From the IMG/VR virus record IMGVR_UViG_2917875804_000004, positions 1-40,868 of that record: DNA of 40,868 nt; one strand, written 5' to 3'. The notes beneath the pieces were generated by a model. That model was not told the DNA's origin and ran no database searches. It worked only from the letters and a program-made list of their open reading frames with translations. The position numbers and the translations under genes are program-made. Shown here one piece after another: positions 2,546 through 3,737 of the stretch (its first letter is position 1; every line of letters starts with the position of its first letter). Source of the DNA: a virus (lineage: Duplodnaviria > Heunggongvirae > Uroviricota > Caudoviricetes).

Positions 2546-2660
2546 GCAATATGCCTTCGCGGTAATGGCTGTCACCCGCGGAACAATTTATCTGCTGGCT
2601 GTATGAAAAGCCAGCAATACAACTTTTGCTGACTTTCCACCGTTAACGCGACACAACCTT
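2546..2660. repeat. Left arm of long imperfect inverted repeat flanking a cargo cassette
   Basis: Core 2570-2660 matches the reverse complement of 3616-3708 at about 93 percent, including a 48-bp identical stretch. Confidence 0.7.
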
Positions 2661-2746
2661 TGTTCCTGAGCTTCACGTTGCAGAGCCGATAATCTCCGTC
2701 TCTTTAAATTAAAAAGACGGAGACTATTAAAAAACTCATTAAAACA

Positions 2747-3391
2747 TCAGGAAACAACAGATTCCCCGTAAAACGCTACAGCCTGTGCAGACTGGGAGTC
2801 CATATCATCATGGAGATCTCTGGAGTATGGGAGGGAGTTGACTGTCGATATAAATATACTGTCATTTTCTAAAGTGAAAATTTCTGATTCGAGACTACCA
2901 ATATCACCACGTACAGGATTAGTCCACCCACTAAACAGTAAAAATCCCCATTCCTGAAAAAGCCCGGAATTCACTTCACGTTTTACATCATGAAACATTT
3001 CTCCCGTCAGTTCATCGAAAGGGACATTATTGATATCGCGTCGTGCCGGGACAGTCCCTTTTTTATCCTCAATCCAAAACAATGCATCGTAAAATCTGTC
3101 CGACGTTGCGGTACGAGGTTTAAAGAAGCGATAAGGTTTAATTAAATAAGATGACACATTTTTCCCTGTGGCTTTATCCTTCGCAAAAATAACAAATGTT
3201 TTACCAATGCAACTTTCATCAATATCATTTGAAAATGACACCACGCCGTCCTGATTTACAGTCAGCGAATTGTCTCCCGCATTGGTGACAACACTCCAGT
3301 CCAATGTATTATTATTGACAACATCATTGTCAACCACCATCTGAAATGTCGCACCTGGAAATAATGTTTTCGGGAATGAACCATTAGCCAT
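2747..3391 (-). CDS. Hypothetical cargo protein (214 aa); probably starts at 3449 (234 aa) if the T8 run 3395-3402 is one base too long
   Basis: AT-rich ORF; upstream 21-codon frame 3384-3449 has a perfect SD TAAGGAG and fuses in frame with the main ORF after a 1-nt deletion in the run. Confidence 0.6.
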   Translation of the reverse strand: MANGSFPKTLFPGATFQMVVDNDVVNNNTLDWSVVTNAGDNSLTVNQDGVVSFSNDIDESCIGKTFVIFAKDKATGKNVSSYLIKPYRFFKPRTATSDRFYDALFWIEDKKGTVPARRDINNVPFDELTGEMFHDVKREVNSGLFQEWGFLLFSGWTNPVRGDIGSLESEIFTLENDSIFISTVNSLPYSRDLHDDMDSQSAQAVAFYGESVVS

Positions 3392-3615
3392 GTCTTTTTT
3401 TTATATCGAACACATGGTGGCTCACTAGAACACCGGTAATTTTTGGCATAAAAAACTCCTTATTTGTTTAATTGAAATGCGATCAATAAATTCGATCACC
3501 AAAGAGATATTATTACTTTTACAAGAATAAATGTTGTTATTTGTTTATTATAAAACAATCATCACCCAGGAAAGAAAAAGACGCAGTTCGTTAACAAAAA
3601 CCTTTGTGGCATATT

Positions 3616-3737
3616 AAGGTTGTGTCGCGTTAACGGTGGAAAGTCAGCAAAAGTTGTATTGCTGTTTCTTTATACAGCTAGCAGATAAAATTGTTCCGCG
3701 GGTGACAATCCATCACCATGAGGATGCTGATATTGCC
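3616..3737. repeat. Right arm of long imperfect inverted repeat flanking the cargo cassette
   Basis: Reverse complement of the left arm; hand alignment. Confidence 0.7.

Follow-up and report, generated by a model that had tools for sequence, protein, structure and literature searches.

How does a single low-GC gene come to lie between two long inverted repeats in the early-left region of a lambdoid prophage? The question is raised by positions 2546-3737 of IMG/VR virus record IMGVR_UViG_2917875804_000004, of which positions 1 to 40,868 (40,868 nucleotides, the window) were analysed. The first-pass annotation had described a mobilised or invertible accessory cassette near int, bounded by arms of ~120 bp. 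We found that the arms match the same end of an insertion sequence (IS) of the IS6 family, that the enclosed cargo gene encodes a homologue of the tip of invasin, and that the flanks are broken parts of a P1-type hot-lxr-humD module. Taken as a whole, the bracketing of a foreign invasin-tip gene by IS6-family copies, now reduced to remnants, in a lambdoid prophage is in our judgement the probable explanation.

The arms had been claimed to be reverse complements of each other, and this was borne out. The true repeat core, 2570-2658 against 3618-3707, was ~93% identical, with a perfect 49-nt stretch at the inner ends. A repeat search returned a pair of 74 nt (2587-2660/3616-3689, 93% complementary) and a pair of 20 nt (2570-2589/3688-3707, 100%), and a gapped local alignment stretched the match to 2546-2660 versus 3616-3737 (score 156). 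The 28-nt tip sequence occurred exactly twice in the window, with zero copies expected (100 shuffles), and the duplex energy predicted for the arms was -179 kcal/mol versus -48 ± 6 in shuffles. The weaker similarity reported to extend outward is seen in the alignment to 2546/3737, but in the left arm the outermost ~25 nt (2546-2569) are native humD sequence resembling the IS by chance, not a repeat of common origin. Because of this resemblance at the left joint, the repeat appears to run on weakly to 2546/3737, and a 10-bp direct repeat, GCCCCTTGCA, shows at both outer edges, each copy being native to its own parent. The right IS-derived remnant reaches ~3780, farther than had been stated. GC content was 0.32-0.41 over 2700-3750 versus 0.47-0.52 in the flanks, and the low-GC leader, Shine-Dalgarno (SD) sequence and 214-amino-acid open reading frame (ORF) described between the arms were all found in the sequence, the ORF list and the GC profile.

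By their sequence, both arms could be assigned to the same end of an IS6-family element, consisting of the transposase C-terminus and the terminal inverted repeat (IR) GGTTGTGTCGCG. The two remnants are:

2570-2658, plus strand: left IS6-family remnant, 89 bp, with the last ~12 transposase codons (LSPAEQF...), the stop codon and the terminal IR, whose tip GG at 2658 faces the cargo.
3618-3780, minus strand: right IS6-family remnant, 163 bp, with the terminal IR, whose tip GG at 3618 faces the cargo, the transposase stop codon at 3670-3672 and the last ~36-40 transposase codons.

When each arm was searched by sensitive BLASTN against complete E. coli genomes, only plasmid-borne IS6-family elements were matched, at 79-86% identity. 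The left remnant aligned with IS positions ~1-89 of plasmid IS6 copies at ~79% identity (blastn), and window 3618-3780 corresponded to IS positions 1-163 of more than 150 IS6 copies in PLSDB at 80-82% (blastn). In the best-annotated match of the E. coli search (pKPC-bca9, L007; compared loci carry L numbers), the aligned part comprises the last ~84 nt of a gene annotated as "IS6-like element ISEas1 family transposase" and ~52 nt up to the IS end. The reference IS in L007 measures 813 bp and is bounded on either side by the IR GGTTCTGTCGCATTAA; the NCBIfam transpos_IS6 model recognises its transposase. Using that transposase as the tblastn query, residues 191-230 were located at 3795-3676 on the minus strand (73% identity, E 3e-16) and the LSPAEQF motif at 2569-2589 on the plus strand; the arms thus encode an IS6 transposase C-terminus (…LAG(I/V)EL(L/I)HM(I/M)(R/C)KGQ…SPAEQFY). 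The inner arm ends carry GGTTGTGTCGCGTTAA, from 3618 onward on the right and as its reverse complement up to 2658 on the left. It aligns with GGTTCTGTCGCATTAA, as a GG-tipped IR like those of ISEas1-type ends, with an internal motif (gTGTc) that is degenerate with respect to the cTGTt…caaa described for the IS6 family (PMC7986276).

Members of this family are ~0.8 kb long, with GG-tipped IRs and 8-bp target duplications (PMC7986276). No complete IS of ~700-890 bp with both ends and 8-bp target repeats was found at the locus; one end per copy survives and the outer ends are deleted. What is left of the transposase is its C-terminal 40 residues in the right arm and ~12 in the left, the catalytic DDE region being absent, and identity to catalogued relatives is ~80%. 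The arms derive from an IS6 element and are not a functional member of the family. They also differ from IS6/IS26 pairs in their setting, the early-left region of a lambdoid prophage and not a resistance plasmid.

Each IS tip lies directly against the cargo, and the body behind it runs outward until it is cut off. This polarity bears directly on a reading of the segment as a non-autonomous transposon, either compound or resembling a miniature inverted-repeat transposable element (MITE) or mobile insertion cassette (MIC), with the ~120-bp arms as terminal inverted repeats and a target-site duplication. Long inverted repeats around a single passenger gene and the 5-10-bp direct repeat at the outer edges (CCCTT / GCCCCTTGCA) would fit such an element. 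However, a MITE or MIC would have its IS repeats outermost, followed by a target-site duplication, and the architecture here is the reverse: with GG tips at the inner arm ends and transposase remnants outward, the tips define everything but the cargo. The direct repeat was rejected as a target-site duplication, its copies being native to uninterrupted humD (L001, P1) and to the uninterrupted IS (L007). In addition, all 15 copies of the cassette have the same junctions and neighbours, and paralogues of the cargo gene elsewhere have no arms. IS6-family compound transposons invariably carry direct, not inverted, copies (PMC7986276). The pseudo-compound transposons Tn610, Tn4003 and Tn2680 likewise hold a passenger between two IS6-family copies, but these are intact and direct and move through cointegrates, whereas the copies here are inverted, truncated and immobile. 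We regard the transposon reading as extremely unlikely. Since no transposase is present and the tips point inward, the cassette should not be transposable, even with transposase supplied in trans. The arms are therefore not the mobilisable termini that had been proposed.

An inverted bracket of this kind is a documented product of the IS6 family: intramolecular 'trans' transposition of IS6/IS26 leaves inverted copies on either side of an inverted segment (PMC7986276; PMC4471558). A foreign, low-GC segment of ~0.96 kb with a self-contained gene would thus have been bracketed by two inverted IS6-family copies through intramolecular replicative transposition in inversion mode, although two independent insertions would also give the pair. 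Alternatively, there may have been a single original IS remnant, the second arm having been produced by a non-transpositional inverted duplication such as a template switch or illegitimate phage recombination. The arms are indeed short and without a transposase body, and no full IS of this type was found in any related locus. On the other hand, the humD-side arm, of 89 bp, is shorter than the hot-side arm, of 163 bp, and the two are joined independently to different phage genes, both begin exactly at the IS tip beside the cargo, as is expected of IS ends made by transposition, and IS6 elements are known to make just such a bracket (PMC7986276). This duplication is unlikely in our view, and we prefer the formation of the pair by IS6-type transposition.

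The outer edges of the two remnants run into parts of two phage genes:

2430-2579, minus strand: humD remnant (UmuD'-like S24 peptidase), equal to P1 HumD codons 33-82 of 129 and truncated at both ends.
3778-4085, minus strand: hot-like ORF, in full 3756-4085 (DNA polymerase III theta homologue; Pfam DNA_pol3_theta, E 5.7e-20).

P1 HumD matched the first by tblastn at 90% identity over residues 33-82 (E 5e-28), and P1 humD matched window 2435-2574 by blastn at 86% identity, homology stopping at 2574. The remnant has no start codon and no LexA box, and no full-length S24 fold with a LexA-regulated promoter is present at the locus; E. coli prophages carry an annotated S24 family peptidase, HumD or DNA repair protein pseudogene at the homologous position, and in L001 the original 5' end of humD is preserved, together with a perfect LexA box, and the NCBIfam HumD equivalog is matched. 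P1 Hot aligned with window 3778-3894 at 84% amino acid and 87% nucleotide identity, homology ending at 3778, and the last 6 codons and the stop codon of the window's hot ORF are supplied by the IS remnant. In P1 the order is hot, lxr (on the opposite strand), the LexA site and humD, a known variable region of P1-like elements (PMC9603915). Order and orientation of the flanks are kept in the window, at 84-90% protein identity to Hot residues 24-63 and HumD residues 33-82. The difference from P1 lies in the middle, where, to judge from these alignments, 2575-3777 has replaced the 3' end of hot, lxr, the LexA operator and humD codons 1-32, leaving humD a dead fragment. It lies also in the replicon, which is P1-like there and lambdoid here.

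At the joint with hot, the sequence common to hot and the IS is ACG alone (3778-3780). On the humD side there is an imperfect 17-nt patch, IS GGTGACAATCCATCACC versus humD GCTGATAGCCATCACC, beyond which native humD goes on CCATCACCGTGAGGGAATATTGCA and the IS goes on CCATCACCATGAGGATGCTGATATTGC. The segment would have become fixed between a P1-type hot gene and humD while the IS copies were reduced to the ends next to the cargo, with 89 bp left beside humD and 163 bp beside hot. This loss may have come about by two deletions or by a double illegitimate crossover at short homologies, and the same event would have cost hot its 3' end and humD its first 32 codons, and taken lxr and the LexA operator with them.

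An origin of the arms from humD itself was also weighed. They would then be an inverted duplication of its 5' region together with the LexA operator, and the SOS response would control the cassette. When translated on the minus strand, the left arm reads on into the frame of humD (...AGDSHYREGILQG), and the right arm contains a LexA-like box, located in the following stretch:

3646-3679, no strand assigned: indel-prone stretch in the arm, 34 bp between AGCA repeats, with a hairpin and CTGT-N8-ACAG (3662-3677).

Genuine humD 5' ends (L001, P1), however, share nothing with the arms past 2574 and have their LexA box elsewhere, and it is IS6 elements that the arm sequence aligns with. Neither the left arm nor the reference IS nor the deletion variants contain CTGT-N8-ACAG. 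The perfect box is probably accidental, as it is missing from the left arm and the reference IS, and many relatives have lost all 34 bp. Arms copied from the humD 5' end were accordingly rejected by comparison with L001 and P1 humD and with IS6 elements; such an origin has next to no chance of being right, and the derivation of the arms from IS6 ends is retained. As separate observations, the box overlaps the stop codon of the IS transposase, and 3645-3679, with its hairpin and a T-run, is terminator-like on the plus strand.

Some further features of the two flanks were observed. A mosaic boundary lies at 3894/3895 within the hot-like ORF: all cassette-bearing loci are ~98% alike over 3781-3894 and diverge upstream. 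The first 64 residues of this 109-amino-acid ORF bear no relation to theta/Hot; their match is to part of a DUF551 gene from another E. coli prophage (L003). In other loci only a theta ORF of 52-68 amino acids is called. In E. coli lambdoid prophages the same humD remnant is cut at other positions and adjoins different genes, WP_000748282.1 (204 amino acids; L002 3231-4106) or WP_016262218.1 (221 amino acids; L001 3231-4943), and the site appears to be a recurrent spot of moron exchange. The dead 3' part of the humD remnant is overlapped by an 80-amino-acid minus-strand ORF, 2155-2397, which matches PHROG 536 'transcriptional regulator' (E 8e-28) and is kept at 90-95% in many E. coli phages, e.g. 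phiV10, TL-2011b and Chlobot.

How widely the cassette occurs was determined from several collections. When the region was compared by megablast with 5,426 complete E. coli genomes and 50,697 phage records, the flanks were matched and the cargo never. With the 28-nt tip sequence as query, six prophage contigs of IMG/VR were found to hold it twice, as inverted copies separated by ~959 bp, and further loci were added by exact-protein and protein-pattern look-ups. In total, the cassette was found with the identical two junctions in at least 15 loci, including the window's own record (L020), from E. marmotae, E. whittamii and cryptic Escherichia. The prophages that carry it differ in integrase, attachment site and recombination module (RecT/YqaJ, Rad52-like/SSB, RecT/Gp157 or AAA_22 ATPase). 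Because the junctions are identical in all copies, this distribution points to a single ancestral event, not repeated mobilisation, followed by shuffling of the hot'-cassette-'humD module among mosaic lambdoid phages. The cassette would spread only within that module, by homologous recombination among such prophages. One locus, L026 6001-7362 of E. whittamii, is a decayed prophage remnant next to torS: its cargo gene is cut at codon ~121 by a deletion joining the C-terminal part of an integrase, and the hot-side arm alone is kept.

Orientation could be read in 14 loci. The gene is co-directional with early-left transcription in 12 of them, the window included, and the cassette is inverted in two, L013 and the metagenome contig L010, where the terminator-side end of the cargo is joined via an arm to hot and the promoter-side end to humD. 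The search of relatives for the opposite orientation that had been proposed was thus successful, and both orientations were seen as variation between genomes. The 34-bp stretch served as a marker within the arms. It is deleted from the hot-side arm in L012, L014, L016, L017, L018, L019, L022 and L024, from the humD-side arm in L013 and from both arms in L010, and it is intact in the window, L015, L021 and L026. This placement indicates that the inner arm parts travel with the cargo and that exchange took place within the ~30 bp of shared sequence farthest from it. In L013 no stretch longer than 32 bp is identical between the arms, a length that ordinary assembly k-mers would resolve, and we therefore take the inversion to be real. 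Its likeliest route is homologous recombination, through RecA or a recombinase of the prophage itself, and the surviving inverted homology of 55-89 bp would be the substrate for occasional flips and for homogenisation of the arms.

The two orientations would also be expected of a programmed switch of the Hin/Gin/Cin or fim type, in which a site-specific recombinase controls the invasin-like gene. As in those systems, including fimS, a segment bounded by inverted repeats occurs both ways round, and variation of an A7/A8 homopolymer within the same gene is suggestive of phase variation. In contrast to them, the ORFs and Pfam matches next to the cassette include no invertase or tyrosine-recombinase gene, the neighbours being hot, the humD remnant and small phage genes. 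The repeats are decayed IS debris that tolerates a 34-bp deletion, not conserved recombination sites. The promoter-like leader flips together with the gene, so that promoter and ORF would not be uncoupled, and the inverted form is rare (2/14), as expected of rare homologous events. A dedicated switch is very unlikely on this evidence, and homologous recombination between the IS remnants remains the preferred route of inversion. Of the mobilised or invertible cassette first suggested, there thus remain a foreign, low-GC segment near int, repeats derived from a mobile element and both orientations; the cassette is not mobilisable.

The cargo gene and its surroundings within the cassette are:

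2747-3449, minus strand: cargo gene, stand-alone invasin D4-D5-like, 233 amino acids when intact; here a 21-amino-acid leader ORF and a 214-amino-acid ORF (2747-3391).
2659-2746, minus strand: cargo 3' flank, unique to the cassette, with a hairpin of 19-bp stem at 2689-2727 without a clear U-tail.
3450-3617, minus strand: AT-rich leader, with SD AAGGAG at 3456-3461 and a GC content of 0.32-0.35.

The ORF had been given as 214 amino acids, or 234 if a run of eight T was an error. The longer gene proved to be real: an upstream ATG lies at 3447-3449, and homologues of 224-233 amino acids span the N-terminal extension, so that the true start is 3449 and the T8/A8 run (3395-3402) is a +1 frameshift in a gene of 233 amino acids, not 234. 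The run itself is genuine, since the frameshifted form is recorded as WP_135383335.1 on five contigs and is therefore not a sequencing error of this window. The intact A7 form was found in L010, L013, L016, L017, L024 and L026, and the A8 form in the window, L012, L014, L015 and L018-L023. The tract lies at codon 18-19, and in the A8 form the 21-amino-acid leader ORF and the 214-amino-acid ORF overlap in ATGgcTAA. The A8 frameshift was seen in nine near-identical loci in different prophages, a pattern that could reflect inheritance with module shuffling or recurrent slippage.

No family had been recognised for the protein in the first-pass annotation. In our searches Pfam Invasin_D4 was matched at residues 5-82 (E 3.5e-8), and the family profile matched residues 303-395 of invasin (PDB 1CWV). 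An exhaustive profile search matched the C-termini of inverse-autotransporter adhesins (IAT_beta, Big_1, Invasin_D3/D4). With hhalign against invasin-family C-termini, a probability of 99.7% (E 3.5e-26) was obtained over columns 3-175, up to the LWxEWG motif of D5; D4 and about two thirds of D5 are covered, and the last third of D5 is unaligned. The AlphaFold model is confident for residues 1-110 only, with a pLDDT (predicted local distance difference test) below 50 in the C-terminal half, and in Foldseek the top PDB match of the whole model was invasin 1cwv (E 1e-9, 236 columns). As the C-terminal half is poorly modelled, the lectin-like assignment rests on the profile alignment and the whole-model Foldseek match. 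From these comparisons, the cargo protein is a homologue of the D4-D5 receptor-binding tip of invasin and intimin (in 1CWV, an Ig-like D4 and a C-type-lectin-like D5). It differs from these adhesins in being an Escherichia-restricted, stand-alone protein of 233 amino acids: no signal peptide, LysM, IAT beta-barrel or Big_1 stalk was identified by Pfam and among homologues, and inspection showed no hydrophobic stretch at the N-terminus. Distant full-length relatives carry IAT_beta, Big_1 and Invasin_D3; the cargo family does not. The earlier guess of a defence or anti-defence function was not supported, for PADLOC gave no match at E<=0.1, and PHROG and NCBIfam held no family for the cargo.

The cargo family comprises 14 clusters at 90% identity, all from Escherichia, with up to five paralogues per genome. 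Elsewhere the paralogues stand alone, whether in other prophages or in chromosomal islets. Members of the closest subgroup (70-72% identity) lie directly upstream of a gene for a Scabin-like ADP-ribosyltransferase of 422-424 amino acids, and the pair may be a two-gene toxin module. The window's cassette has no such partner, and the cargo-family hidden Markov model showed no relation to the neighbouring Scabin-like protein. In L004 (6760-8034), L011 (1067-2335) and L025, the Scabin-like gene, recognised by its central domain (Pfam E 7e-13), follows ~60 bp after the paralogue and stands beside a tyrosine recombinase gene. Several diverged paralogues are held by cryptic Escherichia genomes, with five in Escherichia sp. 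E1V33 and three plus a fragment in E. whittamii (L036 4001-4678, 5305-5982; L024-L032), and one paralogue adjoins fliE, which is the chromosomal neighbourhood of the window's prophage.

The leader of the cargo gene up to 3561 is conserved with the closest paralogue subgroup and contains promoter-like hexamers, and is thus a putative promoter region; in a promoter scan, no minus-strand sigma-70 match in the leader exceeded the threshold. The 3' flank, 2659-2746, is not homologous to paralogue loci and had no match in the E. coli collection. In its position between phage genes, its low GC and its conserved leader with SD, the gene resembles a moron, and our working inference is that it is a moron of the lysogenic-conversion type encoding a soluble binding module. 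Like the morons of lambdoid phages, it is a single, variably present extra gene near int between conserved genes, and in E. coli prophages the site at the humD remnant is taken by other morons. It differs from them in that the scars of acquisition, IS ends and microhomology joints, are still legible and that the gene is often frameshifted. In this window the cargo is probably inactive or weakly expressed.

A more elaborate possibility is that the IS ends have been co-opted as a variation device of two layers. Flips by RecA or a phage recombinase would turn the gene with or against read-through from PL, and A7/A8 slippage would toggle the full-length protein. In the window's orientation the PL transcript would include both arms and could fold a duplex of ~90 bp, sensitive to RNase III, upstream of xis/int. 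The protein would then be a secreted or lysis-released binder of host receptors or glycans, or a partner of the Scabin-like ADP-ribosyltransferase. We consider such a device very unlikely, and hold to the account of a foreign gene bracketed by IS6 remnants.

Several points weigh against that account. The outer IS ends are gone, so that the 8-bp duplications that would separate inversion-mode transposition from independent insertions cannot be read, and the truncation of both IS copies near their inner ends calls for two separate joints. No intact copy of this IS was found in PLSDB or in metagenome contigs, the best relatives being ~80-82% identical, nor did the same scans reveal a donor structure with full IS copies; the 28-nt IS tip gave no match in the scan of metagenome contigs. 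A terminator scan returned no convincing cargo terminator, the hairpin at 2689-2727 being without a U-tail. Finally, the evidence for inversion comes from two assemblies, one an isolate-derived UViG (uncultivated virus genome) and the other a metagenome contig, and not from reads.

Outside the cassette, int of the window (1-1306, minus strand) is split into overlapping ORFs, 1-639 (212 amino acids) and 503-1306 (267 amino acids), which suggests a frameshifted int. In the matching record L020, no int is called and the prophage abuts fliE; it may be defective in excision. An Rfam scan of 1500-4500 returned no family.

The structure is a fresh instance of known processes: bracketing by IS6 elements, illegitimate joining, modular recombination of phages and inversion at inverted repeats. 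It is not a new kind of element and does not overturn current understanding. Its interest is that the locus is a legible record of moron uptake by a prophage, with IS6-type ends, microhomology joints and a replaced P1-like SOS module, and that the scarred module can be traced through many unrelated lambdoid prophages in the cryptic clades of Escherichia. It also indicates that 55-89 bp of IS debris are enough for a gene cassette to be inverted in natural genomes. The cargo represents an uncharacterised family of stand-alone invasin D4-D5 modules confined to Escherichia, which may be of interest to the adhesin and toxin field.

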